From sequence record NC_019517.1: 64,000 bases of DNA; one strand, given 5' to 3'. Below the pieces are notes generated by a model. It ran no database searches. It worked only from the letters and a program-made list of their open reading frames with translations, and was not told the DNA's origin. The first letter of the stretch is position 1; every line of letters starts with the position of its first letter. The translations under genes and the position numbers were made by a program. Below, in pieces: positions 1 through 40,535 of this stretch. This stretch comes from Escherichia phage FV3.

Positions 1-396
1 GGGAGATTTAGGAGCCTTCTTGTCCGTTTCCACACATAAACTTTAACCAAACTCGCGCGGGAGTCTCTCAACCGACTCCTTACGGCGCTGGCAAGCTTTC
101 GTCGGTGGTCCACATTAGTGCTCGGCCTTTGGCCTGCGCTATCGCTTCGCTCCCACACATGTTAACAGTCCTGCATGTATGCACTCCTGTTATTGTGTGC
201 ACTATGGAGGCCCGGCATCTCGCCCCTCGTAGGCGAGTGCCAATGAGGGGCCGACACTACCCATAATAAGTAATAAATTTAAAACATGGTACTTAGGATC
301 TAGTATATTCTACATAAGTTAAGTATATGTACTTTAGTACCATAAGTACTAGATCTTTTATTTTTATTATTTAGTTATTTTAGTTATATTCTTTAT

Positions 397-482
397 GTGT
401 CCGTATTGCGGACAGTTAGTGTCCGTATTACGGGCAGATGTGCCCGCGTGACGGACAGTAGTGTCCGTATCACGGACAGTTA
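397..482. repeat. three tandem copies of an imperfect palindrome GTCCGTAT-N-ACGGAC; middle copy carries a nested CGGGCA/TGCCCG palindrome (coordinates approximate)
   Basis: read directly from the sequence; lies in non-coding DNA 3' of the minus-strand operon. Confidence 0.6.
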
Positions 483-553
483 CTATCCTCTGCTCTTGGG
501 TGGACATAAAACATACGAATCCTTATAGTACAGATATTTAAGTTTTTACTGGT

Positions 554-904
554 CTAACCAGTTGTTGACATTAGAATAACCTCTTCTGGTGGCAAAACTT
601 TGGAAAATGTGCATCTTTTACCTCTCCCTTGTGTGGATATTTCAACCACTCCTGCACATTCTAAAGTTTTAACGCACGCTGCTGCTTTTGTTTTCTTTAT
701 CCCAACATCTGCTGCAATTTTCCTTGTGCTTGGTGTGAAGCGTGAATTTCCTCCAAGCTTATACCAGTTGTGCAGGTAGCAGTATACGATCTTGTCATAT
801 AAGTCAAGAACAACAACCTCCCCGGTTGTGTCATTCAAAACTTTTGACATAGACAGTATTTCAAGGGGGACTTTAAGATATAGCAGCTTATCCCCATCTT
901 TCAT
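554..904 (-). CDS. hypothetical protein, possible winged-HTH DNA-binding protein (116 aa)
   Basis: track ORF, last gene of minus operon; basic helix-rich C-terminal half; no firm motif. Confidence 0.4.
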   Translation of the reverse strand: MKDGDKLLYLKVPLEILSMSKVLNDTTGEVVVLDLYDKIVYCYLHNWYKLGGNSRFTPSTRKIAADVGIKKTKAAACVKTLECAGVVEISTQGRGKRCTFSKVLPPEEVILMSTTG

Positions 905-951
905 ATCTCCTGATTCTCCTTGTGTGGCAATTTTCTTTAAAATAGCAGGGA

Positions 952-1506
952 TTACTCCCCGCTGTCAATAGCAAGACTCATTGCAATACGGTATGCCTCT
1001 TCTAATGGTAAGAGTCTCCCCCACACATCCCAACCGACATCAAACTGCCTGCCAAACAACTGCTGTGTGGTTCCGTGAGCATGACCGAACAGTTGGACTG
1101 ATCCGTGAGGCTTTCTGTTCCACTTTGCAAACTGGTAATGGCTCATACAGATCAAATTCTTGTTGTGGCGAAGCTCGTAATAATCTACAACCTCATGACC
1201 GAACTCTTTCATAATTCTGACAGTCGTCCTTGTGTCATGGTTACCACGAACAAGAATAATATGTCCGTTCAACATATTTAGAACATCTGGGAGCAATTTG
1301 TTGATATTCTTATCCTTAGTGCATGCAATATCGCCCAAGTGAAACACAGTGTCTTCCGGTGACACAACAGAGTTCCACTCGGCGATGATTCCTGCATTCA
1401 TACTGTCAAGATTGCGATCATACTGAGATCTGTGTTTTTGACATGAATCAAACTCCATGACTCGCTGGTGGAGAAAGTGTGTATCGCTTGTTACAAAATA
1501 TTTCAT
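952..1506 (-). CDS. calcineurin-like metallophosphoesterase (Ser/Thr or polynucleotide 3'-phosphatase)
   Basis: motifs DTHF, GDI, GNHD, GHAHG typical of the calcineurin/lambda-phosphatase superfamily. Confidence 0.8.
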   Translation of the reverse strand: MKYFVTSDTHFLHQRVMEFDSCQKHRSQYDRNLDSMNAGIIAEWNSVVSPEDTVFHLGDIACTKDKNINKLLPDVLNMLNGHIILVRGNHDTRTTVRIMKEFGHEVVDYYELRHNKNLICMSHYQFAKWNRKPHGSVQLFGHAHGTTQQLFGRQFDVGWDVWGRLLPLEEAYRIAMSLAIDSGE

Positions 1507-1513
1507 ACATCCC

Positions 1514-1924
1514 TCATTTTAGTTTAATGCAGTTTTTAAGCTCACGCTCCATACGGTCCACAACCCTATTTGGAACATCATGAATGCTCTTATTACCGTG
1601 GCGGTTTTCAACCACGATCACAGTATAACTATACCCATGACTGATTGCCATGTCAACATATTCTTGCACATGTTTTTCTTTTGTAAACGTATTACTTACC
1701 ACGACACGGTCGTATCCCATACGCATCATATCTTCTACGTTATCTTTGCACCATTTTGCTGCAAGTGTTACTTTACTTGCATCCCAGTTGTAATTTCCAT
1801 CGTCGTCGTACCAGAACATGTCGTTCTCAAAATGTGGGTACAGCCCCTCTAAAGATAGTGCATTTGCCAGTGTTGATTTGCCAGAACCTGGTAGACCACG
1901 CACGATATATAGCATTTTAGACAT
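1514..1924 (-). CDS. P-loop kinase, polynucleotide 5'-kinase-like
   Basis: Walker A GLPGSGKST at N-terminus; size and layout like the T4 Pnk kinase domain; SD GGAGG upstream. Confidence 0.6.
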   Translation of the reverse strand: MSKMLYIVRGLPGSGKSTLANALSLEGLYPHFENDMFWYDDDGNYNWDASKVTLAAKWCKDNVEDMMRMGYDRVVVSNTFTKEKHVQEYVDMAISHGYSYTVIVVENRHGNKSIHDVPNRVVDRMERELKNCIKLK

Positions 1925-1952
1925 AGTATTCCTCCGTTTTAATTTTAATGGT

Positions 1953-1981
1953 AGTATACATAACTCTTTTGTTCATTTCAA
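1953..1981 (-). promoter_or_regulatory. sigma70-like promoter for minus operon (TTGAAA-N17-TATACT on minus strand)
   Basis: hexamers read on reverse complement, about 25 nt upstream of the kinase ATG. Confidence 0.5.
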
Positions 1982-2024
1982 GTGTTGACACGAGTTTATT
2001 TGTGTGGCAAGATAGAGTGACAAA

Positions 2025-2960
2025 ATGGCAAACGAGGAATGTATGATGAAGTATTTTAATGCAGATGATTTGGTGGATAAAGGTCTTGTAACCAGTCGGT
2101 ATTATCCAGATCTTGGATTAAAGATCTATAAATATGCCAGAAAAGTATTCTACAACAATTTATGGCATTTGTCTCCGCGTTTACTAGAGTGCCGAGGAAT
2201 TGTTGTCGGTAATGAAGGAAATGTTGTGGCATGGCCCTTCACAAAAGTGTTTAACTTGGGAGAAAATTCCACCAACCTGCCTGACAATAAACTTGTGACG
2301 GCGGTAGAGAAAAAGAACGGATTCCTTGGTGTGGTATCATCTCACAAAGGTGAACTGTTGTTCTCAACAACCGGGTCTCTTGATTCTCCATATTGTAACC
2401 TTGCAAAGGAAACAATCCAGGAGCAATGTGGTAATTTAGATCTTATCAAGAAGGTTATGGGCCATGAAAACATGACATTCATGTTTGAAATTTGTCACCC
2501 TTCAGATCCGCATATTGTTCAGGAAGATCATGGCGCATATTTGATAGGTTTCAGATATAATGATTCTGGAATAATGCTACCAGAAGCAGCTTTAGATGGG
2601 ATTGCCAAATACCTTGGTGCAAAACGTCCTCACACTGTGCGTGAAATTCCGTTCAGCTATGCAAAAGAATTAGCTGCAGAAACAAGAGGTGAAGGGTATA
2701 TGATTCGTAAGCCTTACTACCCTTATGATCTGCAGCTGAAGATCAAGTCTCCATACTATTTGGCACGGAAGGCCGTAATGAGGGGTAAAGCTTGGAAGAT
2801 TTGGGATAATGATATCTTTAAACGTGTTGACGAAGAGTTTTACGGCATGGTAAACTTCATTCGTAGAAACTACACAGAAGATGTGTGGAATTGCCTCCTG
2901 GAGCAGGAACGCCGTGAGATACTTGACTGCTATTTCCACAACGAGGACTATATGCAATGA
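2025..2960 (+). CDS. RNA ligase, Rnl1-like nucleotidyltransferase
   Basis: motif I KKNG (Lys about residue 97, as in T4 Rnl1 Lys99), motif IV EGYMIRK, motif V LKIK. Confidence 0.6.
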   Translation: MANEECMMKYFNADDLVDKGLVTSRYYPDLGLKIYKYARKVFYNNLWHLSPRLLECRGIVVGNEGNVVAWPFTKVFNLGENSTNLPDNKLVTAVEKKNGFLGVVSSHKGELLFSTTGSLDSPYCNLAKETIQEQCGNLDLIKKVMGHENMTFMFEICHPSDPHIVQEDHGAYLIGFRYNDSGIMLPEAALDGIAKYLGAKRPHTVREIPFSYAKELAAETRGEGYMIRKPYYPYDLQLKIKSPYYLARKAVMRGKAWKIWDNDIFKRVDEEFYGMVNFIRRNYTEDVWNCLLEQERREILDCYFHNEDYMQ

Positions 2961-3307
2961 AGAAGTTGATTGTGTGGCTGGATGACTTGAGAGATCCGTC
3001 AAATTATGGGCTCCCAGATGCTCTTTGGCTAAAGAATTCCTCTGAGTTTATGGATTTTATTAACGATAAGGGAAAGCTCTACAGGCGCGTTTCTGAGTGG
3101 CACATGGACAACGACCTTGGAGAGGTATTTGAAGGGTACGATTGCCTATCTATGCTGGAAGAAAAATTTGTATTTGGTAAGCCTCCTGTAGTTGACAACG
3201 TGAAGATTTTCGTGCATACTTCTAACCCATCAGCCGCTCGTAAATTCATGCTTGCTGCTGACTCGTTTAAAAAGTTTGGAATAGAGATTAAACAAAACAT
3301 CTACTGA
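2957..3307 (+). CDS. hypothetical protein (116 aa)
   Basis: track ORF overlapping stop of upstream gene; no recognised motif. Confidence 0.4.
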   Translation: MKKLIVWLDDLRDPSNYGLPDALWLKNSSEFMDFINDKGKLYRRVSEWHMDNDLGEVFEGYDCLSMLEEKFVFGKPPVVDNVKIFVHTSNPSAARKFMLAADSFKKFGIEIKQNIY

Positions 3308-4091: not shown

Positions 4092-4805
4092 ATGCTGAAT
4101 ACTAAACTGATCGACAACCTGGAAAAACTGTCTCAGCCTGAAAACTACCTTTGGTCTGCCAACTGGGTGGAAAATTGGAACCGTGTAGCAGCTAAAGTGA
4201 AAAAATCATACACACCATTCGAACTTCAGCTGAGTTTCATTGAGGAAGAGTTCAATGAAGTTTTGGAAGAGTTGGAGAAAGGTGATGGTGGGGATCATCT
4301 CCTAAAAGAGGCCTGCGATCTTCACGTTGTCACAAGTTATGCCGCTTATCTTGTTAACGATAACCATGAAAAGTGGTCAAACCTGTTTGATAATCCGCGA
4401 GGTCTTAAGTTTAAGATCGGTGAATTTTATGATACACTGATCGCTGCGAAAAATACCTCTAAGCAAAGAGCGTCTGCTTACCGCTTAGCAGAGTTGTCAA
4501 CAGCTTTGCTGTTCCAGCTTCGCGGTGATGTGTGCGGGATGATGCGGAAGGTTCTAAAATCTAATGACAGCAAGTTTGCACGCGTCAACCATCTGCGGTA
4601 TTCACACGGTGCCAGTGCAGATATGCCTGCTGAACAACTCATCGAGTTGGAGATTAAAGATCTTGAGCGACGCTTTGATGGTCGCTATGAAGGTTTTGTT
4701 GCTAAAGAAGAATTCTACAACGGAAATAAAGTTATCATATTCCTCGACAGTAAAGGTAAGATTATGAAGCCTTCGAGCTTCAAGGATGTAACAGAATATA
4801 TTTAA
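4092..4805 (+). CDS. hypothetical protein, possible MazG-like NTP pyrophosphohydrolase
   Basis: EEEFNEVLEELEKGD...KEACDLHVV resembles the EExxE...ExxD pattern of MazG/all-alpha NTP-PPases; weak. Confidence 0.4.
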   Translation: MLNTKLIDNLEKLSQPENYLWSANWVENWNRVAAKVKKSYTPFELQLSFIEEEFNEVLEELEKGDGGDHLLKEACDLHVVTSYAAYLVNDNHEKWSNLFDNPRGLKFKIGEFYDTLIAAKNTSKQRASAYRLAELSTALLFQLRGDVCGMMRKVLKSNDSKFARVNHLRYSHGASADMPAEQLIELEIKDLERRFDGRYEGFVAKEEFYNGNKVIIFLDSKGKIMKPSSFKDVTEYI

Positions 4806-5178: not shown

Positions 5179-5434
5179 TCTTGCTAAACCTGTAGAAGCA
5201 CACCAGTTTGACGGAAGCTCTTCATCAGTATCTGATCTGCAACGGTGGATTGATACAGGTGTGTTTACATCGTCACCTGTTCGAACCAGAGATATTCTTC
5301 GCATGTGTGAGCTTGTCGAGCCGTTTGGTAACCTGGTCTTGTACCAAGGGGATTGGTTAGTTGACTTTATGGGAGACTGGTTGGTAATGAGCAAAGAAGA
5401 GATGTTTAAAATTTTTAAGGAAGAGGCTGAGTAA
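5165..5434 (+). CDS. hypothetical protein (89 aa)
   Basis: track ORF, SD AAGGAGG upstream; no motif. Confidence 0.4.
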   Translation: MPLFNLAKPVEAHQFDGSSSSVSDLQRWIDTGVFTSSPVRTRDILRMCELVEPFGNLVLYQGDWLVDFMGDWLVMSKEEMFKIFKEEAE

Positions 5435-11514: not shown

Positions 11515-12041
11515 GAAAGAAAGCTGTCAAAGCCCCCGTTCATAACGGGTGGCTAAAAGATTCTAAGGATATAGCCAACTTTCGGAAAGAATTGTCAGAA
11601 GAGCAGGATGGTCTTGATCCGATCTTGTGCGAACCACTTCGTAAGCCTTGTTTAGATCATGATCATCTGACTGGTCGTTGCAGGGGTGTTTTGTCCCAAT
11701 GCACTAATACCTTTGAGGGGTATGTGCTTAAATACTGGATGAAATACTGTAACGAGTATACAGATTGCAGTTTATCAGAGGCGTTGCGCCGGATGGCTGA
11801 CTATCTGGAGAAAGACTACAGCGACTTCCCGCTCCACAAAAACTACAGGGACGATATGACAAAGTTCTTGAGGAGATGCTCTAAAGCTACGATTATTGCA
11901 CGGGCAGAATCGGATCTCGATCTTGTCATTAATTCAGAGTACACCAAGCATGAGGCTATTGAGGCCTACATGCAGGAGTTTATAAAGAAAACTGAGGAGA
12001 GAGATTTCTATGGAGACGAAAAAGGTATTCAATCCTTGTGA
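11466..12041 (+). CDS. endonuclease VII-like Holliday junction resolvase
   Basis: CEPLRKPCLDHDH...GRCRGVLSQCTNTFEG matches T4 gp49 HLDHDH...RGLLCNLCNAAEG core; start uncertain (overlaps upstream ORF). Confidence 0.75.
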   Translation: MDRQGASGGIIAKRKIRKKAVKAPVHNGWLKDSKDIANFRKELSEEQDGLDPILCEPLRKPCLDHDHLTGRCRGVLSQCTNTFEGYVLKYWMKYCNEYTDCSLSEALRRMADYLEKDYSDFPLHKNYRDDMTKFLRRCSKATIIARAESDLDLVINSEYTKHEAIEAYMQEFIKKTEERDFYGDEKGIQSL

Positions 12042-12231
12042 TTCAGTTCTGATCAGGATGAAATACCGTAACTGGAAAGGTGTTGTTGCAGATCGCTGCG
12101 TTACTGAGCCTAGTTTATGGTTTGGCTCTACAGATTATCATAAAGAAGATCAGTGGTTGATGCATGCATTTGATGTAGACAAGGGCGAATATCGTGACTT
12201 CGCTTTAAAAGACATTCTTCAGTTTTACTAA
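12010..12231 (+). CDS. hypothetical protein (73 aa)
   Basis: track ORF; no motif. Confidence 0.35.
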   Translation: METKKVFNPCDSVLIRMKYRNWKGVVADRCVTEPSLWFGSTDYHKEDQWLMHAFDVDKGEYRDFALKDILQFY

Positions 12232-12243
12232 GGAATCTTAACG

Positions 12244-13227
12244 ATGATGACAAAGTTAACTCTTGAGCAAATTTTAACACTAAAGCAACAGGGATACACC
12301 AATAGACAAATTGCTCGTGAATTTCTAGGTCGTGAGTCACGTGAGAGCTGGATCCGGCTACAGCTTAAACGTGCACAAGAGAATATGTCAGAGATTGTAG
12401 GAGAGGCAACGGAGCGCTTCCTTGAAGAACACAAAGGTGCTAAAGTTTGGGTGTATGATACAGAGACATCCCCAACAAACGGCTGGTTCTTTGGGCATTA
12501 TAAGACCAACATTCAAACCTGCGGTATTGAAATTATGCCCTATATGCTAACTTTCGCAGGTAAATGGTTAGACAGCCCCAGTGTGGTTGACTGTGCTCTT
12601 CCTGATTACAAAATGTGGGGCGAGGATATCCACAACGATCTTGAGCTGATTCAAGATTTGTGGTATTATCTGGATAAATGTGATGTAGCAGTAGCACACA
12701 ACTCTGGTTTTGACTGTGGGTGGGCCAACCAACGATTTGCATTTCACGGTTTGCCGCCAACAAGCCCATACAAAGAGGTTGACACCCTCAAGATGATTAA
12801 AAAGGCATTCCGTTTGAATGCAAACACGTTAGAGTATGCATGTAAATACTTCCAACTGGCCCGACAGAAACTAATTGACCACACATTTGAAATGTGGATC
12901 AAGTGTGTTCATGGTGATCTTGAGGCGTTTAAACAGATGCGGGAGTATAATGTTGGGGACATCTTGTCTCTGGAAGGCCTATATTTGCTGGCGCGTCCGT
13001 TTGCTAAGCAGCACCCCAACATGTCGTTGTACTACCAAGATGAGGAGTCAAAAGTTCGTTGCCCACGTTGTGGTGGAGAACACCTTCACGAGGAAGAGGC
13101 TTTGGCGTATACTCAACTGAGTGCATTTAAAACCTACCGCTGCGAAGGTTGTGGATCTGTTGTTCGTGATCGTAACAACATCCGTACCCGAGAAGAGATG
13201 AAAAACACCCTGATTCAGATAATCTGA
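12244..13227 (+). CDS. DnaQ-like 3'-5' exonuclease with N-terminal HTH and C-terminal Cys4 cluster
   Basis: Exo I VWVYDTET, Exo III AHNSGFDCGW; N-terminal GYTNRQIAREF HTH-like; CPRCGG...CEGCG. Confidence 0.6.
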   Translation: MMTKLTLEQILTLKQQGYTNRQIAREFLGRESRESWIRLQLKRAQENMSEIVGEATERFLEEHKGAKVWVYDTETSPTNGWFFGHYKTNIQTCGIEIMPYMLTFAGKWLDSPSVVDCALPDYKMWGEDIHNDLELIQDLWYYLDKCDVAVAHNSGFDCGWANQRFAFHGLPPTSPYKEVDTLKMIKKAFRLNANTLEYACKYFQLARQKLIDHTFEMWIKCVHGDLEAFKQMREYNVGDILSLEGLYLLARPFAKQHPNMSLYYQDEESKVRCPRCGGEHLHEEEALAYTQLSAFKTYRCEGCGSVVRDRNNIRTREEMKNTLIQII

Positions 13228-13272: not shown

Positions 13273-14079
13273 TTGAGCAAGAAAGAGTCCAACGACAAAT
13301 ATTACACAGACCCTGAGTATGCAGAATATCTTGTTGGTAAAGTAAAAGTTAGGTATGGGAATTGTGCATACGTTGAGCCTTCTGCTGGAAAGGGTTCTTT
13401 TTCAAAACTATTTTCAGAGATACTGTCGTACGATTTGGTACCAGATCCTGAATTTGAAGGCCCAACACCGTGTATTAAGGCAAACTTCTTAGAGGTGTAC
13501 CCTAAGGCTGATGTCTTCATAGGTAATCCTCCATTCGGCAAAAATTCGTCTTTAGCTTGCAAGTTCTTTAACCACTGTGCATCATTGCTAGAGCCTGGCG
13601 GGGCTATAGCCTTCATCTTGCCACGGACATTTGAAAAAATATTTTTTGCAAACAAGCTGGACATGTCAATGCACCTTATCTACAGCGAAAGGTGCCCCAA
13701 GAACTCGTTTTTACTTAACGACAAACCTTATGACGTGCCATGTGTTTTCCAAATTTGGGAGAAAAAGGTGTGCAATAGGGATCCTGTAGAGATTGGGGAG
13801 AATAAGTTATTTTCTTTTAGCACACCAGATGACTACGACTTCTGCATAAGACGTGTTGGGTATAATGCTGGAAAAGTATTGGGGGAGGATGACCCAAAAT
13901 CTGAAGAATCAACATATTTCATAAAATCTTTAGTTGATGGTGTTGACAGAGTGTTTGCTGAATGCTATTCTTCTTTTCAAGAAGAAGCAGGTAAGACTGC
14001 TGGAATGAAGAGTATAGGCAAGAAAGAACTACAATACATTTTGGAGACTAGGTATGATCAAAAGTATAGACTTGACTAA
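13273..14079 (+). CDS. N6-adenine DNA methyltransferase
   Basis: catalytic motif IGNPPFG; probable TTG start with SD GGAGG (track ORF begins 13243 inside the terminator). Confidence 0.65.
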   Translation: MSKKESNDKYYTDPEYAEYLVGKVKVRYGNCAYVEPSAGKGSFSKLFSEILSYDLVPDPEFEGPTPCIKANFLEVYPKADVFIGNPPFGKNSSLACKFFNHCASLLEPGGAIAFILPRTFEKIFFANKLDMSMHLIYSERCPKNSFLLNDKPYDVPCVFQIWEKKVCNRDPVEIGENKLFSFSTPDDYDFCIRRVGYNAGKVLGEDDPKSEESTYFIKSLVDGVDRVFAECYSSFQEEAGKTAGMKSIGKKELQYILETRYDQKYRLD

Positions 14080-14512
14080 AGAGCTTACTGATGCAAAGGC
14101 TTTTGGTGAGACAGCCGTGCAAAGGGGACAGGCTATGGGGCTGGCACTACCTTTTGTCTTAAAAGAGCATTTTACAGATTTTCAGCTTATCCGGGGCGAA
14201 AAGGGGATGCTTATTCTGGAACATAAGCTGAGTAAGAAACGTTATAAAGTTGTTTTTAATTCTAAAGCTCCAACAAAACTTGGATTCAGAACTTACAATC
14301 TCAACCCTTCCTATACTAAGGGTGTTGGAAGAGTTGAACAGCAGCATCTCAGTGCTAGAGCTTCTTTAGCCCCTTTGATGCTAAATTTCTCAGGTGTGGC
14401 TTTGGGATACCTGGATAAGAAAAGAGTTCTTCATGTTCGTTTTACAGACTTTGTAACGCTTTTAGCTAACAACGAAGTAGATGAAAAGGGACGTGTAAAA
14501 ACAAACTTCTAA
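14054..14512 (+). CDS. hypothetical protein (152 aa)
   Basis: track ORF; no motif. Confidence 0.4.
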   Translation: MIKSIDLTKELTDAKAFGETAVQRGQAMGLALPFVLKEHFTDFQLIRGEKGMLILEHKLSKKRYKVVFNSKAPTKLGFRTYNLNPSYTKGVGRVEQQHLSARASLAPLMLNFSGVALGYLDKKRVLHVRFTDFVTLLANNEVDEKGRVKTNF

Positions 14513-14527
14513 TAACGTGCAGTATGA

Positions 14528-14731
14528 TTGGAGACCGCAATGACACCAGAGTTAACAATTCCAGACAGCTTTTCAGAAAACTTTATCCCAGAAATGATGA
14601 ATAAGATGCGATCATTGCTTGATCAGATTGAGGAGGCTGTTTGGGAAGACGATGCCGTAGTAGCTAACGAACTGGTAGATAAGTGTAAAAGTATTATTGA
14701 TGCAGTTGAAGAATACCACGGAGGTTTTTAA
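14528..14731 (+). CDS. hypothetical acidic protein (67 aa)
   Basis: track ORF; ATGA overlap with next gene. Confidence 0.4.
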   Translation: METAMTPELTIPDSFSENFIPEMMNKMRSLLDQIEEAVWEDDAVVANELVDKCKSIIDAVEEYHGGF

Positions 14732-15333
14732 TGGATATTATTGTTCTTAATGCTCCACCAAGTTCTGGAAAAGACCATATCGCAGATCTTTTGTTGGAAG
14801 CCATTCCAAACTCGCATCACCGCGAGGTAAAGGAAATGCTATTCAGTGTGGCAATTAAGGCAGCTGGTATTTCACCACAGTTGTGGAATGCACTCTATGA
14901 TCGCCGCTACAAAGAAGAACCGTGCCCGTTCTTAATGATAGACGGCAAGCATGTTTCTCCGCGAGAATGGATGATCCATTGTAGTGAAAATCTGATCAAA
15001 CCTATCTTTGGTGAAGATGCTTTCGGTAAGGCCGCAGTCGCATCCTTGAAGAAAGATTTCCCTGAAGGTAAAGGGGTTGTTGTTTACTCCGATGGTGGCT
15101 TCAAAGAGGAGCTGGCATGCCTTGGCGAGTACGCATCCATCACAGGTGGCGATCTTCTACTGTTCCGTATCCACCGTGAAGGATATGATTGGGGAAATGA
15201 TTCCAGAACTTACCTTAGCCTAGAGAAGAACGGGATAAAAGGTATTGAGTTTGATGTTGTTAACCCAGAGGGAGCTCCTTGGGAGTGCGCATCTGAGATT
15301 GTGTGCAAGTATATTGATGCTAAAGAGGGCTGA
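14731..15333 (+). CDS. deoxynucleoside monophosphate kinase
   Basis: N-terminus IIVLNAPPSSGKDHIADLL resembles T4 gp1 LIFLSGVKRSGKDTTADFI. Confidence 0.65.
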   Translation: MDIIVLNAPPSSGKDHIADLLLEAIPNSHHREVKEMLFSVAIKAAGISPQLWNALYDRRYKEEPCPFLMIDGKHVSPREWMIHCSENLIKPIFGEDAFGKAAVASLKKDFPEGKGVVVYSDGGFKEELACLGEYASITGGDLLLFRIHREGYDWGNDSRTYLSLEKNGIKGIEFDVVNPEGAPWECASEIVCKYIDAKEG

Positions 15334-15338
15334 GAACA

Positions 15339-15932
15339 ATGCTGATCGGAATTGATGTAGATTTAACACTGGTAGACTCAGGAACAGCATGGTGGGAGTG
15401 GCTAGAGCGTTTATATGGTCCAGCCAGCAAGACAGTCGCTAAACCTTCTAACGGACTGATGTATTACGATCTGTCAAAGTATTGGCCTGATCGCCCCAAA
15501 GAAAACATCATAGGGCCTTTTGATTTCTGGAGTGACCCGTTCCTCTACGACTTTCTTAAGCCTGAAGAGGGGGCTATTGAGGTTATGAAAGATTTGGTGG
15601 CTCGTGGTCACAAGCTTGCATTTATCTCTGTATGCAAGAAAGGTCACCTTGCATCTAAATCAAGGTTCTTAAAGCGTTGGACCAGCGATTTTATGGATCT
15701 TGACGATCACACCCAGGGTCACGGCTTCTACGCCACACATTTCAAAGGTAATGTGGCTGTAGATGTTATAATTGACGACAGGCATGAATACCTGAACCAA
15801 TTCGCTTCACGCCCTGAAGTTATTAAAATCTTAAAAGACACTCCTTATGAGCAATTCGAGGAGTTGAAGGTTAGTGTTGACTATACCGCTAACAGCTGGT
15901 ATAAAATAGGGAAGTTTTTAGAAGGTATTTGA
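15339..15932 (+). CDS. HAD-family phosphatase, 5'(3')-deoxyribonucleotidase-like
   Basis: HAD motif I IGIDVDLTLVDS. Confidence 0.55.
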   Translation: MLIGIDVDLTLVDSGTAWWEWLERLYGPASKTVAKPSNGLMYYDLSKYWPDRPKENIIGPFDFWSDPFLYDFLKPEEGAIEVMKDLVARGHKLAFISVCKKGHLASKSRFLKRWTSDFMDLDDHTQGHGFYATHFKGNVAVDVIIDDRHEYLNQFASRPEVIKILKDTPYEQFEELKVSVDYTANSWYKIGKFLEGI

Positions 15933-15933
15933 A

Positions 15934-16134
15934 ATGGGCAGATGTTCTAAAGGTGGCGATCCTGTAGTCAGATACGGTGACTGGCTAGAGGTGTATGATC
16001 TGGGTGGTAAGCTGGTGTACGCCTCTAGGATCACCCAAGATATGTGCTCCGATATGTTTAACAGATACCTTGCATTTAAGGCCAACATAAACCCAGACGA
16101 AATTTCCAAAATTAAAACAAGGAGAGCTAAATAA
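15934..16134 (+). CDS. hypothetical protein (66 aa)
   Basis: track ORF; no motif. Confidence 0.35.
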   Translation: MGRCSKGGDPVVRYGDWLEVYDLGGKLVYASRITQDMCSDMFNRYLAFKANINPDEISKIKTRRAK

Positions 16135-17117
16135 TGCTAAAACTGTGCACTGCAAAGATTATTGCCGACAGCATTTCCGAGAAAGGTAAGCGTATCACTA
16201 CTTTTGAGCTAGAATATCCTCGAATTATTCACTCAGAGCTTATGACACATCGAATGTTCAGCCGAAACGCTATGTCTTCTCGTGCAGTACCTGTCAGCAA
16301 GATGCTGCAGCAAATTGTGGAGAATCCGGCAATGCCAGTTCGCTTCGGTGTAAATAAGCGAGGAATGGAAGATGGAGGGGAACACGATCAAAAGATCCGT
16401 GTAGAATACACTGACATGGAGATGACCCCTGAAGAGTTTTGGAAAGAAGCTGCAAAAAACGCCGCTTGGCATGCAGAGAAGTTCGCCCTTGCTGGTTACC
16501 ATAAGCAAGTATGTAACCGCTTAGTAGAGCCGTTTCAGCGCATGAAAACAGTTGTAACAAGCACCGAGTGGAATAATTTTTTCCACCTGCGTTGCTGGCA
16601 CGATGCGGATCCTACGATTCAGATGTTGGCTAATTGCATGCAGGATGCTATTATGAATAGCACTCCTGAAATCCTTAAACCGGGTCAATGGCACACCCCA
16701 TATGTAGAGCATGTTTATTTGGACGGAGAGTTTAACTACGCTGTACGTGACACAGAAGGAAAGCTCTGCATTCTCGATACTAAAGAAGCTCTGTCTATTA
16801 GTGCTAGTTGCTGTGCACAAGTATCTTATCGAAATATTGACAGCACGTTTGAAAAGGCAGACAGTGTTGCTAAAAAATTGATTGGTGGGGATCGTATTCA
16901 TGCAAGCCCTTACGAGCATCAGGCAACACCTATGGATCACGATAACGCAATGGAACGTTTAAACTACTACCTGTCTTCATGTGAAATCACACAGGACAGC
17001 TGTGTTTGGCAGGAAGGTGTAACCCATCAAGACCGCGACGGTAAATTCTGGTCTGCCAACTTTTGTGGGTGGGTTCAGCACAGACAGCTGCTTAATAACC
17101 ACTTCATGAAAGGTTAA
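16134..17117 (+). CDS. thyX: flavin-dependent thymidylate synthase
   Basis: ThyX signature RHSELMTHRMFSRNAMSSRAVP (RHR...SxR). Confidence 0.9.
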   Translation: MLKLCTAKIIADSISEKGKRITTFELEYPRIIHSELMTHRMFSRNAMSSRAVPVSKMLQQIVENPAMPVRFGVNKRGMEDGGEHDQKIRVEYTDMEMTPEEFWKEAAKNAAWHAEKFALAGYHKQVCNRLVEPFQRMKTVVTSTEWNNFFHLRCWHDADPTIQMLANCMQDAIMNSTPEILKPGQWHTPYVEHVYLDGEFNYAVRDTEGKLCILDTKEALSISASCCAQVSYRNIDSTFEKADSVAKKLIGGDRIHASPYEHQATPMDHDNAMERLNYYLSSCEITQDSCVWQEGVTHQDRDGKFWSANFCGWVQHRQLLNNHFMKG

Positions 17118-17118
17118 T

Positions 17119-17145
17119 CCTATCGCAGCGATAGGTAACTTTTGT
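17119..17145 (+). terminator. possible terminator hairpin
   Basis: palindrome CCTATCGC/GCGATAGG followed by T-rich run after thyX stop. Confidence 0.4.
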
Positions 17146-17146
17146 G

Positions 17147-17175
17147 TTGACTAATAGTATTAGATAATCTATAAT
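17147..17175 (+). promoter_or_regulatory. strong sigma70-like promoter TTGACT-N17-TATAAT
   Basis: near-perfect hexamers; followed by 5'-UTR hairpin GGCTCAC...GTGAGCC and SD. Confidence 0.65.
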
Positions 17176-17215
17176 AATGGCTCACTTTGTTGGTGAGCCA
17201 GAAATGGAGACAGAT

Positions 17216-17677
17216 ATGAGTAATGTTATGATTCCTAAAAAGACATTTATTTCAGTTACTTTAGATTTCCTATCTACTGTTCCCGGGTTTAACGTTCGCA
17301 CACGAAACGGTCTCCGAGCTGCACTCTTTGCTGTAGGGTTTGATTTAAAAAATATTGATGTTCTTCGTGGAAAAAACGTTAGATGCAAAAATAAGCCAAC
17401 CCATTATCGAAAGGCAGATGTATTTGCTGGTGTCATGCGTGCAGACTTTAGATACCCGCAGATGTATAACGGTGTAGATATTTTAGATGTAGATAAAGCA
17501 CCCGGTGAGGCAATGCTTGTTCAAGATCTTCCGTATGATATCCCCGTAGAAGATCGTGTTAATGTGAGAAAGTATACAAAACAATCTGAAAAGGCTGAAG
17601 ATATTCATATTGTTGATGAACCTTTCAATTTTGAAGATCTGCATCGCCTGGAAAAATTATTCGGTATTGAAAGCTAA
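17216..17677 (+). CDS. hypothetical protein (153 aa)
   Basis: in-frame ATG with SD GGAGA after the 5'-UTR hairpin; track ORF begins earlier at 17177. Confidence 0.45.
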   Translation: MSNVMIPKKTFISVTLDFLSTVPGFNVRTRNGLRAALFAVGFDLKNIDVLRGKNVRCKNKPTHYRKADVFAGVMRADFRYPQMYNGVDILDVDKAPGEAMLVQDLPYDIPVEDRVNVRKYTKQSEKAEDIHIVDEPFNFEDLHRLEKLFGIES

Positions 17678-17687
17678 GGTGGTGAAG

Positions 17688-17918
17688 ATGAGTCATAACT
17701 CCAAGTGGAAGGATCTTGGTTTTGCAAGTCGGGCAGAGTATGTTGGTTGGCTTTGGTTCAACGGTCTGACAAACGATATTAAAATGTATGATGATGTTTA
17801 TTATGATGAATATACAGGTAAAATTATAAATATCTCTGTAGAAGAGGATACTTTTATCCAACAAGACACTGATACCTGCCTTGATAAATACGTTGATGAA
17901 GTGGAGGAAGCAAATTGA
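17688..17918 (+). CDS. hypothetical protein (76 aa)
   Basis: internal ATG with SD AAGGTGG; track ORF 17610..17918. Confidence 0.4.
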   Translation: MSHNSKWKDLGFASRAEYVGWLWFNGLTNDIKMYDDVYYDEYTGKIINISVEEDTFIQQDTDTCLDKYVDEVEEAN

Positions 17919-20230
17919 TCACCAAGGTAATTAAAAGCAACGGATGTGAAGTGGCATTCGATCCAGAACGTTTAAATAAGGCAGCTATTTTCGGTGACGA
18001 CGGTAACGGCAATTGGTCACATATTGCACTTGATGCATACAAACGGCTGTATGATGGGTGTACAACCAAAGAAGTTAACCAAGCTATCATAGACTCCTGT
18101 GTTAGCCGTAAAGACGAAGCTCATTCTCGTATGGCTGGTCGTGTTCTTATCGGTCAGATTTATAAAGAGGCTTTTGGAGGATTTACAAAGATCCCTTCCT
18201 TACCCTCATTTTACAATACCATGGTTGATAAAGGGTATTGGGAGGATATGGGTTATAGCTTTACCGAGTTAAACACTTTAGACGCTGTTATTGATCACAG
18301 TAAAGATCTCGGTTATGGCTATGCAGTCCTTAAACAGTTTCGCGACAAATATGGGATCAAGGATACTCTTAAAGACACCCTGTTTGAATCTCCCCAGATG
18401 ATGTTTATGGGGATAGCAATGGCTGTCATGAAGAATATGCCGAAAGAACGTCGTATCAACGATGTTGTAAAATTATACACTTATCTGTCGGACTTGAAGA
18501 TTAATGCCCCGACACCGTACTTAAACGGTCTACGCACAGGTAAGACAGGGTATGCATCTTGTTGCGTAATAAAAGCTGACGATACAGCAAAATCTATTGG
18601 TGTGGCACGTGAAGTTGCGTACACAATGACGGTTAACCAAGCAGGTATTGGCTACTATCTATCATCAAGATCTGCAGGTGATGGTGTTCGTGGTAACACT
18701 ATTAAACATATGGGCAAGCTTCCATATTATCGAGGCATTGATGCTGGGGTTAAGGAGAATAGACAACAATCACGCGGAGGTTCGGCAACGGTATCATTCC
18801 TTGCGCTAGATCCCCAGATTGATGAACTGATCCGTTTGAGAAACCCTATGACTGTTGCTTCAAAAAGAATCAACACTATGGACTACTCTATAGGTATTAA
18901 TAGATCATTTATCAACCGTGTGGCTAAGAATTTAGATTGGATGCTTGTTTCTTATAAGCACGCACCTCAACTGCACGAGGGTATCTTCACCATGTCTATG
19001 GATGAGTTTGATGCAGAGGTTGATCGTATCGCTAAAGATGACAGCATTCCTAAAACATGGATCCGTGCTAGAGACCTTGCTGTTGAACTGATCACGCAGC
19101 GTACCGAGGTAGGCAGGCTGTATGTGTACTGGACAGATGAGATGAATAGGCATACACCTTTTAAAGATGTAATCTATTCAAGTAATCTGTGTGCAGAGAT
19201 AGCCCTTCCGACAAAAGGCTATTCAGATATGCGTAATATCTTCAAGTACGATGCTGATGATGGTGAGGTTGCATTGTGCTTCCTATCATCCCTTGTAGCT
19301 GGAAGGGTTACCCCAGAGGAGTATGAGGATGTTGCATACTACACTGTGCTTATGATTGACAATGTTATGGAAATCATGACATATCCGTATGAAAATATGG
19401 AGAGCACTGTTAAAAAACGCAGATCCATCGGGGTTGGCCTTACCAATATTGCACATTTTATTGCCAGCCACAAGGTTGCTTACGGGTCTCCTGAAAGTAA
19501 ACAGCTTGTTCACGATCTTGCAGAGCTTCACAGCTACAGCTTGCATAAGGCAAGTTTACGATTGGCAAAAGAGCGTGGTGTCTGCGAGTGGATGCATAAA
19601 ACAAAATACCCAGAGGGTTGGTTACCAATCGACACTTATAACAAAGAGGTCGATAGTGTGGTGAAAGATCCTTCTCTTAAGCAGGATTGGGAAGGGTTAC
19701 GTAAAGAAATTATTGAAAACGGTGGACTACGTAATAGCGTTCTTGAAGCATATATGCCTAATGAAAGCTCCTCGTTGGCAACAAACACAACTAACGGGGT
19801 TTATCCTGTCCGTGAGCACATTATCTTTAAAAAGTCGCCACAAGGACAGGTGCTGTTTATCGTTCCTGAATATGATGAACTGAAAGAGTATTATACCTCG
19901 GCTTGGGACGTTGATACTAACGACATGATTGATATGTATGCTGTGATTCAAAAATTCACAGGACAGGCAATCAGTGCTGACCTATATATTGATTACACCA
20001 AGTTGAAAGATGGTAAAATTTCAATGAAGGAGCAGCTTGGGTATCTTATCCGTGCTACTAAATTCGGGATGAAGACATGGTATTACTTAAACTCTCGGGT
20101 TGGTGCTGGTGACTCTTTGACAGAGGAGCTTCACGCGAAGAAACAGGCTGAAGATGAAACCAGAAAGAACTATCCTTTGATTGCAGATAGTTCAGTTGAA
20201 GATCCGTATTGCGAAAGTTGTGCACTGTAA
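17915..20230 (+). CDS. nrdA: ribonucleotide reductase class I alpha subunit
   Basis: 771 aa; N-terminal ATP cone, active-site NLCAEI block, C-terminal CESCAL. Confidence 0.95.
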   Translation: MITKVIKSNGCEVAFDPERLNKAAIFGDDGNGNWSHIALDAYKRLYDGCTTKEVNQAIIDSCVSRKDEAHSRMAGRVLIGQIYKEAFGGFTKIPSLPSFYNTMVDKGYWEDMGYSFTELNTLDAVIDHSKDLGYGYAVLKQFRDKYGIKDTLKDTLFESPQMMFMGIAMAVMKNMPKERRINDVVKLYTYLSDLKINAPTPYLNGLRTGKTGYASCCVIKADDTAKSIGVAREVAYTMTVNQAGIGYYLSSRSAGDGVRGNTIKHMGKLPYYRGIDAGVKENRQQSRGGSATVSFLALDPQIDELIRLRNPMTVASKRINTMDYSIGINRSFINRVAKNLDWMLVSYKHAPQLHEGIFTMSMDEFDAEVDRIAKDDSIPKTWIRARDLAVELITQRTEVGRLYVYWTDEMNRHTPFKDVIYSSNLCAEIALPTKGYSDMRNIFKYDADDGEVALCFLSSLVAGRVTPEEYEDVAYYTVLMIDNVMEIMTYPYENMESTVKKRRSIGVGLTNIAHFIASHKVAYGSPESKQLVHDLAELHSYSLHKASLRLAKERGVCEWMHKTKYPEGWLPIDTYNKEVDSVVKDPSLKQDWEGLRKEIIENGGLRNSVLEAYMPNESSSLATNTTNGVYPVREHIIFKKSPQGQVLFIVPEYDELKEYYTSAWDVDTNDMIDMYAVIQKFTGQAISADLYIDYTKLKDGKISMKEQLGYLIRATKFGMKTWYYLNSRVGAGDSLTEELHAKKQAEDETRKNYPLIADSSVEDPYCESCAL

Positions 20231-20237
20231 TTTAAAA

Positions 20238-20257
20238 GGGGCTTCGGCCCCATTTTA
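20238..20257 (+). terminator. rho-independent terminator
   Basis: GGGGCTTCGGCCCC hairpin followed by ATTTT. Confidence 0.65.
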
Positions 20258-20268
20258 GAGGTAGAATA

Positions 20269-21357
20269 ATGTCCGTATTTAATACTGAGAACACTGCTCA
20301 TAAAACTGGTGATTATCCGCTGTTTCTAGGACAGCAGATGGGGATGTACGACTCTATTAACAAAAAGTATCCACAGCTGTTTGAACTATACAAAAAACAA
20401 AAAGAACAAGATTGGGCAGAGGACGAAGTAGATTTGTCACAGTCTATTTCTGATTTCGTAACATGCTCAAAGTCAACTTACGATGTGATGGTGCAGACAC
20501 TGATGTGGCAATGGGAGGCAGACAGTGTTGCAGCAAGATCTATCATTTGTCTGTTTTCACCATTTATCACCAACAGTGAGCTTTTCACCTTGTTGATGAA
20601 GCAGTCTGAGATTGAGGTTCTTCATGCACTAACTTACTCAGAGATTGTTAGACAATGCCTTCCTAATGCTCGCGAGATTATAGAAGAGATTCAGGAAAAC
20701 CAGAACGTGCTGAGCAGATCTGGAATTATTGTCAAATATATGCAAGAGCTTGAGGTTATTGGTGCAAAATACCGACTGGATCCTTCCAGTGTTGAAGAAG
20801 ATGTTGTACGGAAATGTATCCTTAGAGCACTTTTTGCACTTTTAGCGCTAGAAAGTATTGAGTTTATTGCAAGTTTTGCATGTACGTTCGCAGTAGCTGA
20901 GCAAGGTATTTTTGTTCAAGTGGCACAACTTGTTCAAAAAATTATGCTTGATGAAATGCTGCATTCGAAAGGTGATTTTGCTATCATCGATATCCTGCTT
21001 GATGATCCTGCATGGGAGCAAAGCTTCCTTGAGATTAAGGGTGAGTTAAAAGAAATTCTTGACGAAGTGCGGACCAAGGAGTACGGTTGGAGTGACTATA
21101 TTTTCAGCGAAGGAAGAGCAATTATAGGTCTTAACTCACCATTACTTAAAGAATGGGTTGACTATAACTGCTCACCGATTTATGATTACTACAACATCGA
21201 CAAAGACTTTGTGCCGCCAACAAAAGACCCGCTACCGTTTATGCAGGTGTGGATGAAACCTTCACTGCAACAGACGGCTAACCAGGAAATGTCTAACACT
21301 GACTACCGCGTCAACACAACTGTTAACGACGCTGAAGAAGAAATTTGGGAGTTTTAA
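20269..21357 (+). CDS. nrdB: ribonucleotide reductase class I beta subunit
   Basis: 362 aa directly downstream of nrdA; conserved E/H-rich helices. Confidence 0.9.
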   Translation: MSVFNTENTAHKTGDYPLFLGQQMGMYDSINKKYPQLFELYKKQKEQDWAEDEVDLSQSISDFVTCSKSTYDVMVQTLMWQWEADSVAARSIICLFSPFITNSELFTLLMKQSEIEVLHALTYSEIVRQCLPNAREIIEEIQENQNVLSRSGIIVKYMQELEVIGAKYRLDPSSVEEDVVRKCILRALFALLALESIEFIASFACTFAVAEQGIFVQVAQLVQKIMLDEMLHSKGDFAIIDILLDDPAWEQSFLEIKGELKEILDEVRTKEYGWSDYIFSEGRAIIGLNSPLLKEWVDYNCSPIYDYYNIDKDFVPPTKDPLPFMQVWMKPSLQQTANQEMSNTDYRVNTTVNDAEEEIWEF

Positions 21358-39136: not shown

Positions 39137-39444
39137 GGTGGATTATGTCTACAACGACAGCTAAATACTCCTATATGCCAGCAACCTCCGCAGAAATAGA
39201 CTTCAGTTTCGATGTGTTTCCATTGTTTGAGATAGTCCTGGCATACCCAACAACTATATCTACTCCTGAATCACTTGTGCCTATTAAGTTGCAGAACGCT
39301 ATGCATTCCATGCACTACAACAATAAATGCAGGCACAGATGGTGTCAGGACGAGGAAAAAGATCTAGATAGTTTGAAAGATTTTGACAATCACCTTTTGA
39401 CCCCTTTCAGCTACTCTAACCTGGACAAGCCCTCATGGGTATAG
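39133..39444 (+). CDS. hypothetical protein (103 aa)
   Basis: track ORF. Confidence 0.4.
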   Translation: MRWIMSTTTAKYSYMPATSAEIDFSFDVFPLFEIVLAYPTTISTPESLVPIKLQNAMHSMHYNNKCRHRWCQDEEKDLDSLKDFDNHLLTPFSYSNLDKPSWV

Positions 39445-39468
39445 CAAAATATCAAATTTAAGGCACCT

Positions 39469-39497
39469 AGGACGCTCTGTGGCGTCCTTTTCTTTAT
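39469..39497 (+). terminator. rho-independent terminator
   Basis: AGGACGC-TCTGT-GGCGTCC followed by TTTTCTTT. Confidence 0.65.
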
Positions 39498-39657
39498 CTG
39501 GTGCACGATTGCATACCTTGGGTAGTTAATCTCATTACAGAGCGTTTAATAGCGGCCTGTAAACAGATCTCTATTTCGAGCGTAGCGAGAACGCACGTCC
39601 GTTTTGACCCAAATCACCATACGCTCGGATTTTAACCAAACCCTCGCGGCGTTTCTG

Positions 39658-39686
39658 TTGACACATTACCGCTCCTGTGATAGTAT
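39658..39686 (+). promoter_or_regulatory. sigma70-like promoter TTGACA-N17-TAGTAT
   Basis: consensus hexamers. Confidence 0.5.
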
Positions 39687-39706
39687 CCTCACATAGTTTG
39701 TAGAAT

Positions 39707-39808
39707 ATGAAATACGCAATGAAAACATTATCTGAGGTTTTAGTGGTGATCCTGATGATCATTACGTCCATAGCAGTTGTTGCCGGAATACTCACGGGTG
39801 GAACATGA
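39707..39808 (+). CDS. hydrophobic micro-protein (33 aa)
   Basis: MKYAMKTLSEVLVVILMIITSIAVVAGILTGGT; ATGA overlap with next ORF. Confidence 0.35.
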   Translation: MKYAMKTLSEVLVVILMIITSIAVVAGILTGGT

Positions 39809-39993
39809 CCAACACACATGCACCTAAAGAGACATCTGAAGAAGCGACTATAGAGAAAAACTTCAATTCTGAGGATTCTTTATCTCCGTCTCAGGTAGAT
39901 CCTGAGGCTGATGACCTGACGTGGGAAGACATCGTAGACATCTGGTTCTCTATCATGCCTGAGCACGAAGAGTTCAGAGGTGGGAGACTATGA
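39805..39993 (+). CDS. hypothetical acidic protein (62 aa)
   Basis: track ORF. Confidence 0.4.
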   Translation: MTNTHAPKETSEEATIEKNFNSEDSLSPSQVDPEADDLTWEDIVDIWFSIMPEHEEFRGGRL

Positions 39994-40112
39994 AGCACCG
40001 AGCCCACATAAGTTTATCATGCTAAAGCATGGCCTGAAGAGGCAAACGTGCATAATTCCAGTGCATTGGAACGTATAACCCTGTTCACACTCTCATTTCC
40101 AGAGGAGATTTT

Positions 40113-40328
40113 ATGAAGATAGAAATATTTGGTGGAGCTGACAACACTCGTGGCCTGATTTACCTTGAATTCGATGAATCATACCTGCCAGAGGTGTTAA
40201 ATATAGACTCTGTTGCTGAGGCTTTGGGAGTAAACCCTAAAGAACTCCACTCTTGTGCTGAGATCGATGGTTGGGAAGAGACCATGAACATTGATTTCAG
40301 TGAAGTAGAGGATGAACCGCTGGACTGA
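40113..40328 (+). CDS. small acidic protein, paralog family A-like
   Basis: MKIEIFGG...acidic C-terminus. Confidence 0.45.
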   Translation: MKIEIFGGADNTRGLIYLEFDESYLPEVLNIDSVAEALGVNPKELHSCAEIDGWEETMNIDFSEVEDEPLD

Positions 40329-40508
40329 CACACAATTAGCTGCCCGGCTAAAGTGCTGGAAGCACCTATAACACATCTTTCAACTAAATTTCCTACCACC
40401 ACAATCACTTACCTCCCACACATGACTGTTTGCTTGTTTAGTGAGCAGTCATTCCTTGACATTCTTGCCTATCCTGATAAAATTAAGTTCTTCTCTTTTC
40501 TTTTACCG

Positions 40509-40535
40509 AGTAATTCGGGTTTTCTGTTCTCTTCG
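40509..40535 (+). terminator. possible terminator closing the plus-strand block
   Basis: hairpin CCGAGTAATTCGG followed by T-rich tract (approximate). Confidence 0.35.

Follow-up and report, generated by a model that had tools for sequence, protein, structure and literature searches.

The stretch of DNA considered here, referred to below as the window, comprises 64,000 nucleotides of Escherichia phage FV3 (NC_019517.1), and the subject of this analysis is the GC-rich segment at its left edge, which a preliminary description had proposed to be either part of a structured RNA or a terminus-proximal element. We find that the segment belongs to a non-coding element of ~370 nt that is very probably a real and new structured element and that may form part of a replication origin. 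The first 3 kb of the window match 118 phage records at 90–98% identity, nearly all of them Escherichia phages of the genus Vequintavirus (rV5-like), and in 117 related phage genomes the locus occupies an internal position of the record, between two genes; the left edge of the window is therefore arbitrary, no genome terminus is located here and the terminus-proximal proposal was abandoned. In annotated relatives the GC-rich segment sits in a gap of ~660 nt separating two minus-strand genes, and the order along the minus strand is a winged helix-turn-helix (wHTH) initiator-like gene, four candidate iterons, an AT-rich tract, the GC-rich element and then the ribosome-binding site (RBS) and start of a gene for a 192-aa hypothetical protein, which begins ~108 nt to the left of the window. 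Coordinates are those of the window, where a position w corresponds to w+3999 in locus L001 (phage YP-6), and the features of the locus are as follows.

1–260, plus ~105 nt past the left edge, minus strand: GC-rich structured non-coding element, ~370 nt in total, ending at the RBS of the 192-aa gene.
262–397, strand unassigned: AT-rich tract (20.4% G+C) with interleaved short palindromes, a candidate DNA-unwinding region.
398–483, strand unassigned: four direct repeats with a 21–22-bp unit, each dyad-symmetric (TGTCCGTATYRCGGACA); candidate iterons.
554–904, minus strand: gene for a 116-aa winged-helix protein, like the DNA-binding domain of replication initiators (Pfam/PHROG).

The composition of the locus is extreme on both counts, with bases 1–260 (55.8% G+C) being the maximum among all 260-nt windows in the 64 kb (mean 42.8%, standard deviation 3.3%) and bases 261–397 the minimum among all 137-nt windows, so that both the GC-rich first ~250 bp and the AT-rich palindromic tract behind them were correctly recognized at the outset. 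The same holds for the lack of a real open reading frame (ORF), as the segment contains only mechanical ORFs of 23–56 aa. Small ORFs (56 and 31–33 aa) are nevertheless annotated here in the BASEL, HdK5 and Mangalyan records. In an alignment of 22 Vequintavirus loci and two representatives of a divergent sister clade (clade B: L005 from IMG/VR and L013 from a Logan assembly), the variable sites of the GC-rich block are spread evenly over the three codon phases (27/28/23), in contrast with those of the flanking genes, which concentrate at third positions (10/13/40 and 26/15/64), and within the two annotated small ORFs (13/16/10 and 10/7/6) no third-position excess is seen. One-nucleotide indels also occur between relatives, one of which frameshifts the 56-aa ORF in clade B. 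Small protein-coding genes were rejected on the basis of these even substitution phases and 1-nt indels, and the element is non-coding.

Comparison with clade B separates the element from its surroundings. The GC-rich block is 82–84% identical between the clades, with sub-blocks of 90–97%, and the 192-aa protein is 82% identical, whereas the neighbouring AT-rich tract, iterons and regulator gene are not alignable (60–64% of columns vary). A block of 41 nt with an AU-rich hairpin, just 5' of the 192-aa gene, is invariant across the clades. In clade B (L005 1700–2130; L013 513–2640) a different gene, of 143 aa, replaces the 116-aa regulator and at least five copies of an unrelated repeat (GATACATATTTGTATCAGA) are present; L013 carries in addition a KilA-N/ANT gene. 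It appears that initiator and iterons have here been exchanged together, as one module.

Outside the phages, blastn matches to the element were obtained in circular plasmids of E. coli of 13.2–13.7 kb, with ~82–84% identity over parts of it. The plasmid family consists of L030, L032 and L129–L135, which are circles of ~13.2–14.3 kb, plus a 39.6-kb record (L031, 1–39610), which is a head-to-tail trimer of the ~13-kb unit. Among the gene products of these plasmids are a major capsid protein (PHROG 29), a distal-tail (Dit)-like protein, a tape-measure protein, a neck/tail-completion protein and an O/DnaD-like Rep of their own. A scan of ten of the proteins, together with the annotations of the records and of Pfam, revealed neither a terminase nor a portal; from this gene content they are probably plasmid-borne phage satellites. 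At least five different iteron sequences occur in them upstream of the same element. When the 2.3-kb plasmid non-coding region was searched against 50,697 phage records, it matched only a core of 62–68 nt (~83% identity), in all 117 Vequintavirus records, apart from one extra short and unrelated match outside the core. The phage 116-aa protein aligns only to the N-terminal wHTH of the plasmid Rep (24% identity over 54 aa, pairwise E 1e-4).

Within the phage copy the following parts can be distinguished, all of them described on the minus strand.

209–252, minus strand: hairpin H1, with outer GGCCC/GGGCC, middle GGCA/UGCC and inner CUCGCCU/GGGGCGAG stems and an invariant U·G pair.
170–202, minus strand: variable hairpin region, from the phage alignments.
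52–161, minus strand: central multi-helix domain, with a predicted closing helix UGUGUGG(GAG)/(CUC)CCGCGCG containing U·G pairs (minimum-free-energy and centroid folds).
53–120, minus strand: core of the central domain (covariance model R1, 96.9 bits, E 4e-22), the sole copy in 64 kb.
71–106 (arms 71–76 and 101–106), minus strand: six-bp helix ACCGAC/GUCGGU enclosing the conserved GAAAGCUUGCCAGCGCCGKAAGGA.
2–39, minus strand: the 3' part within the window, with a second UGUGUGG motif and a GCCCCUAAAU-like motif (GCUCCUAAAU here), conserved between phages and plasmids.

In the 68-nt core model (53–120), which was built on 13 distinct sequences, 98.5% of cells are paired, compared with 21–55% in slid-partner controls, and none of 500 shuffles reaches the covariation score. 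In the six-bp helix the phage pairing ACCGAC/GUCGGU becomes GCUGCC/GGCAGC in the plasmids, three of the six pairs being double-changed (A-U to G-C, C-G to U-A and A-U to C-G) and the other three invariant, while the enclosed 24-nt junction is invariant save for K, which is U or G, and one C-to-U change in phage WM. This enclosed part comprises two small hairpins, one of them with a GUAA or GGAA cap. Each genome has one copy recognized by R1, no second copy of the core was found with this model in the 64-kb window, and the plasmid copies score 89–91 bits.

Hairpin H1 gives a similar picture, as its 16 pairs are 100% paired in 10 distinct sequences, as against 33–50% in slid-partner controls, and in plasmid L030 it carries two double changes, both from G-C to U-A (GGCA/UGCC to GUCA/UGAC and CUCGCC/GGCGAG to CUCUCC/GGAGAG). 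The other differences between phage and plasmid in H1 consist of a C-to-U change that preserves a G·U pair, or lie at loop positions. The hairpin originally pointed out at about 222–251 does exist as an inverted repeat (arms 222–234 and 239–251, 13 nt, 85% complementary), but it constitutes an alternative pairing, and the fold backed by comparison and covariation in this place is the three-part stem at 209–252.

The remaining parts vary more. The region at 170–202 has the highest diversity in the main clade (pi 0.22), and a stretch of 18 nt within it (~179–196) is deleted in some phages. The closing helix predicted for the central domain is GUGUGGGAG/CUCCCGCGC and contains two or three U·G pairs; neither of its motifs varies in phage clade A, in phage clade B or in the two domain types found in the plasmids, the interior being variable. 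The hairpin that follows the GCCCCUAAAU motif has a stem that differs by lineage (GCU/AGC, UCUC/GAGA, GUC/GAC or GGCC/GGCU), the hairpin before the downstream gene or promoter is AUAGAAAAGCUC/GAGUUUUUCUAU in phages versus CUCUAAA..UCG/CGA..UUUAGAG in plasmids, and insertions of whole hairpins distinguish the plasmids from one another. Two other candidate pairings, a hairpin lying upstream of H1 and one of long range around it, were inspected by eye on the alignments and are unsupported.

Two types of central domain can be recognized in the plasmid family. The second, in the place of the type-1 core, is found as follows.

L131 ~2300–2800, L132 ~11800–12300 and L133 ~12300–12800, minus strand: type-2 domain, with the same flanks (UGUGUGGG ... 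AAUGUGGA ... CCGCGCG).

It has a perfect 7-bp helix, UCCGGAU/AUCCGGA, instead of GCUGCC/GGCAGC and an unrelated interior, and no counterpart of it was found by blastn in the phage collection. As far as the aligned copies tell, the element is built in a modular way and can accommodate at least two central domains in exchange for one another, of which phages carry type 1.

On its own, the fold energy is modest (z-scores for the whole 370-nt element of –2.46 on the minus strand and –2.38 on the plus strand), so the weight of the evidence comes from the comparison with related sequences. The covariation argument rests on stacked compensatory pairs within helices, an all-against-all covariation scan being uninformative, since only about three lineages are available. 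Read from these alignments, the helices are maintained by compensatory changes. The proposal of a structured RNA extending outside the window has turned out to be largely right in this respect, with ~105 of the ~370 nt, and not half of the element, lying to the left of the edge, up to the RBS of the 192-aa gene. That the segment might be simply the 3' untranslated region of a neighbouring gene had also been raised. It is indeed located between two minus-strand genes, downstream of one and upstream of the other, but it is kept in clades in which the repeats and the regulator have been replaced, and part of it recurs in unrelated plasmids.

Which strand folds can be judged from the wobble pairs. 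Invariant G·U pairs are present on the minus strand, one in H1 and one in the helix flanking the core, the six-bp helix has G·U variants in three sequences, and the predicted closing helix of the central domain includes U·G pairs; as these would be A·C mismatches on the opposite strand, the comparison identifies the gene-sense strand (window minus) as the folded strand. The loops include GUAA and GGAA and, in the hairpins inserted specifically in plasmids, cUUCGg. GNRA and UUCG loops and several wobble pairs per helix are typical of RNA and not of single-stranded DNA, and these features suggest that the folded molecule is probably RNA.

The element has no described RNA family. No family was obtained with Rfam 15 at E values up to 10 over the window edge and over the full element in L001, where the best hit (rli43, 20.7–25.8 bits against a threshold of 100) was driven by the AT-rich tract, nor at gathering thresholds over the whole 64-kb window, and permissive searches of the plasmids returned nothing relevant. 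ARAGORN found 0 tRNA or tmRNA genes in the window, and 0 intrinsic terminators (GC-rich stem-loop followed by a U run) were found on either strand across the phage gap. Sensitive blastn against 5,426 complete E. coli genomes gave no chromosomal match to the element, so a host-derived sequence was rejected, and across 185,579 species genomes an 18-mer of the core met with chance matches only, AAGGAG flanking none of them. A scan of IMG/VR and metagenomes retrieved only rV5-like contigs and one chance match, although the metagenome pattern held a phage-specific base and was blind to plasmid-type copies. Among 72,556 plasmids, the blastn matches were confined to the ~13-kb family and to one phage genome deposited as a plasmid, with no similarity to other plasmid origins or to ssi/pas elements.

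The surroundings of the element point to replication. Four phased dyad repeats together with an AT-rich tract and an initiator-like DNA-binding protein constitute the anatomy of an iteron-type origin, as in lambda ori. Here, four copies at 21–22-bp spacing adjoin 137 nt of 20.4% G+C, the repeats carry a repeat_region annotation in some GenBank records, and the 116-aa protein, labelled in relatives as 'putative transcriptional regulator / replication initiation protein', matches phrog_12838 'replication initiation protein' (E 1e-79), with HTH_36 (24.6 bits against a cut-off of 25) and DUF6945 both just under the Pfam cut-offs. The repeats are, on this layout, probably the phage origin. The order of direct repeats, AT-rich stretch and structured element is shared by clade A, clade B and the plasmids, where the AT-rich stretch is short and was judged by eye. 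At least seven repeat sequences are involved overall (two in phages and at least five in plasmids), the associated winged-helix proteins differ too, and the genes downstream of the element are unrelated between phage and plasmid. Since the downstream genes differ and, in plasmids, a promoter intervenes, the constant partner of the element is the iteron/AT-rich module and not the downstream gene; and as initiator and iterons have been swapped while the element persists, we infer that it may be a cis-acting part of the origin that does not depend on the initiator. The reading we prefer is that the ~370-nt non-coding element, a series of hairpins on the gene-sense strand and most probably RNA, is associated with the origin, acts in cis and is initiator-independent, and we would give this reading a probability of roughly 0.42; a role of the element in replication, taken by itself, falls somewhat short of even odds.

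Two versions of such a role can be envisaged. A structured transcript that begins at the regulator gene and extends across the iterons and the AT-rich tract might help to open or prime the origin (priming, R-loop), or else the element might be a loading or priming signal for proteins of the replisome, e.g., the phage primase-helicase. The plasmids, with their own Rep and iterons, would then carry the core in order to use the same phage factor, and a satellite that has its own initiator and depends on the replisome of a helper would explain why the plasmids share this module alone with a virulent phage. The most far-reaching form of the proposal, in which an undescribed modular RNA would be the initiator-independent half of the origin of rV5-type phages and would have been captured by capsid-encoding satellites to couple their replication or propagation to the machinery of these phages, is doubtful.

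A number of observations weigh against the reading of the element as an RNA part of the origin. An origin was looked for by skew analysis in the rV5 genome paper and none was located (PMC3606486), and a literature search on the rV5 origin, iterons, transcriptome and satellites found nothing, with no transcript or replication data for these phages. DnaA boxes (TTWTNCACA) are not enriched (38 matches in 11 kb versus 30 expected), and within the element there is a single DnaA-box-like site, with one mismatch (26–34). On the phage minus strand, a search from the regulator gene to the element revealed no sigma-70 consensus promoter, so an RNA would need read-through or a non-consensus promoter; one GenBank record has a PhagePromoter prediction inside the AT-rich tract. 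In plasmids, the element is followed by a strong sigma-70-like promoter (TTGACA-17-TAAGAT), which separates it from the downstream operon, and terminator-like hairpins in the region are seen on the opposite strand only. The compensatory changes come from about three lineages (phage A, phage B and plasmids) and represent few independent events. The plasmids L131–L133 are complete and do not have the type-1 core, which means that this exact core is not indispensable. Lastly, in L012, which carries a distant homologue of the 192-aa gene (50% identity), the upstream gene is only 59 nt away and the element is lacking; this tells against the element being simply the obligatory leader of that gene, though it shows only that the gene does not need the element.

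The alternative that comes closest is a structured RNA with a function apart from replication, either the 5' leader of the 192-aa gene and of the long leftward operon, controlling translation, RNA stability or processive antitermination, or a stand-alone protein-binding non-coding RNA copied by the plasmids, which would thereby sense or titrate the phage protein bound to it. The element is co-oriented with the flanking genes in phages and plasmids alike, it ends in phages right at the RBS of the next gene after the invariant 41-nt block with its AU-rich hairpin, and the near-invariant 24-nt junction suggests a specific binding partner. RNAalifold moreover pairs window ~165–178 with the RBS and start of the 192-aa gene (L001 3893–3910), with four sequences compensatory, one pair being A-U in these four and U·G in fifteen, but it is broken in three. 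The strong plasmid promoter also splits the element from the operon, so that it is not the leader of that operon there, and the neighbour that stays constant while the downstream genes differ is the iteron/AT-rich module, which leaves this alternative rather unlikely. Origin association without RNA is conceivable as well, with the hairpins forming in single-stranded DNA, on the strand that becomes exposed as the AT-rich tract opens, and signalling single-strand initiation or the assembly of a primosome. The layout of iterons, AT-rich DNA and a hairpin-rich, strand-specific block beside them matches that of RSF1010 oriV with ssiA/ssiB, and recalls the phiX174/G4 primosome assembly sites; the folded strand would serve as lagging-strand template for a fork that moves out of the AT-rich tract in the direction of the element; and the phage copy contains GCGAAGC, a sequence that forms a very stable DNA mini-hairpin. 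The element here is, however, much longer than those sites, modular and unrelated to them in sequence, and similarity to plasmid origins within the 72,556 plasmids did not go beyond the ~13-kb family. The U·G pairs of the predicted closing helix and the invariant G·U pairs elsewhere would lose much of their strength as G·T pairs in DNA, loops of the GNRA and cUUCGg kinds are characteristic of RNA, and a purely single-stranded-DNA signal is for these reasons improbable.

Less probable again, and by a clear step, is a packaging recognition element, in the form of a pac-like site or a packaging RNA, which would be shared so that the plasmids could be packaged by the phage terminase. P4 and similar satellites have packaging sites in common with their helpers, and the present plasmids carry capsid and tail genes, appear from the proteins and annotations scanned to have neither terminase nor portal, and have the core as the sole DNA in common with the phage. 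Recognition sites in double-stranded DNA need no compensatory changes, however, and the place of the element, beside the iterons and the AT-rich tract, is remote from any terminase gene; Rfam gave no matching family, hence not the phi29 pRNA model either, and some plasmids of the family are without this core. The explanation to which we attach least weight is that the segment encodes small proteins or is a functionless GC-rich spacer with chance hairpins. The annotated ORFs would speak for the former, and the modest fold z-score, taken alone, for the latter, yet the codon phases and the frameshift in clade B contradict coding, and a spacer would not be expected to show conservation across clades and in plasmids with compensatory changes.

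Among known systems, the likeness of the candidate origin to lambda ori (four dyad iterons, an AT-rich region and a palindrome) consists in the four phased dyad repeats, the AT-rich DNA and the winged-helix initiator-like gene, with the differences that the repeats here are downstream of a 116-aa protein with a DNA-binding domain only and that the ~370-nt structured block after the AT-rich tract has no counterpart in lambda. ColE1 RNA II and the T4 origins ori(uvsY) and ori(34) illustrate how a structured transcript near an unwinding element could prime replication, which fits the gene-sense fold; ColE1, unlike this locus, has no iterons or initiator, and compared with these primers no promoter, RNase H site or persistent-hybrid motif was identified here and there was no Rfam match. 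Phage-borne or large RNAs represented in Rfam (GOLLD, ROOL, phi29 pRNA, HK022 put and the C4/CI antisense RNA) resemble the element as phage multi-hairpin RNAs with variable peripheral stems, but searches of the element at E values up to 10, and of the entire window at gathering score, matched none of them. With regard to the plasmids, the Vibrio satellite PLE brings its own initiator and relies on the replisome of phage ICP1, and the plasmids here are comparable in that they encode their own Rep and iterons and share one non-coding module with a virulent phage. They differ in being plasmids and not chromosomal islands, and their relationship to a helper is hypothetical; we know of no shared structured element described for PLE.

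As the origin of rV5-type phages has never been located, the locus, with its four iterons, AT-rich tract and conserved structured element, offers a concrete candidate in a group of phages in wide use for phage therapy and biocontrol. It also adds to the known RNA-like motifs a new one with compensatory support that lies outside Rfam, in a place where several GenBank records annotate small ORFs devoid of a coding signature. Through the element, virulent phages are connected with ~13-kb E. coli plasmids that form a family which has received little notice and that carry genes for capsid, tape-measure and distal-tail proteins. Should these plasmids be satellites, the element in common would indicate the point at which they depend molecularly on the helper, and satellite biology would extend to plasmids preying on large lytic myoviruses.

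Some further features of the plasmids may be recorded. They hold ~2.2–2.9 kb of conserved non-coding DNA and variable iterons, and their capsid proteins fall into clusters that are all at least 82% identical, one cluster having 441 member sequences. In L134, a 30-kb contig, aminoglycoside phosphotransferase genes, a DDE transposase gene and TetR-family genes are inserted beside the tail genes (13452–21041). A weak match in phage T5 (34 nt, 88%, E 0.02; L136 1201–1234, record 5285–5318) was obtained for the motif at the 3' side of the plasmid element (AAATCGAAAATAAGCCCCCTAAA...); it lies in non-coding DNA within the left terminal repeat (first-step-transfer region) and at the same place in many T5-like phages; the core model gave no match at the T5 site.

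In the phages, a sigma-70-like site (TGGACA-17-TATAGT, 10/12) is present on the plus strand at 502–530, between the iterons and the stop of the regulator gene and directed antisense into that gene; it was identified in the relative L001 at 4501–4529. Just to the right of the locus (952–2960) there is a divergent gene pair accompanied by a metallophosphoesterase, the pair being a minus-strand gene (1514–1924) for a kinase-only, polynucleotide-kinase-like P-loop protein and a plus-strand RNA ligase 1-like gene (2025–2960). With a phage tRNA cluster located ~2 kb to the left of the window, these genes can be read as a tRNA-repair-type set, as in T4.

Elsewhere in the window, ~2.5 kb at 39400–41900 are without a long ORF and have a GC skew near zero, and it is here that the window changes its strand bias; no Rfam family was matched in this interval, which corresponds to the 'non-coding' box 104013–106618 of the rV5 genome paper (PMC3606486). 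Two peculiarities of the database records were also met with. One rV5-like genome is filed as a 137.5-kb E. coli plasmid (CP057073.1), and 18 GenBank records named 'Campylobacter phage' (host C. jejuni) are ~95% identical to E. coli rV5-like phages across the whole 1–3000 query, which suggests mislabelled hosts or contaminating phages.

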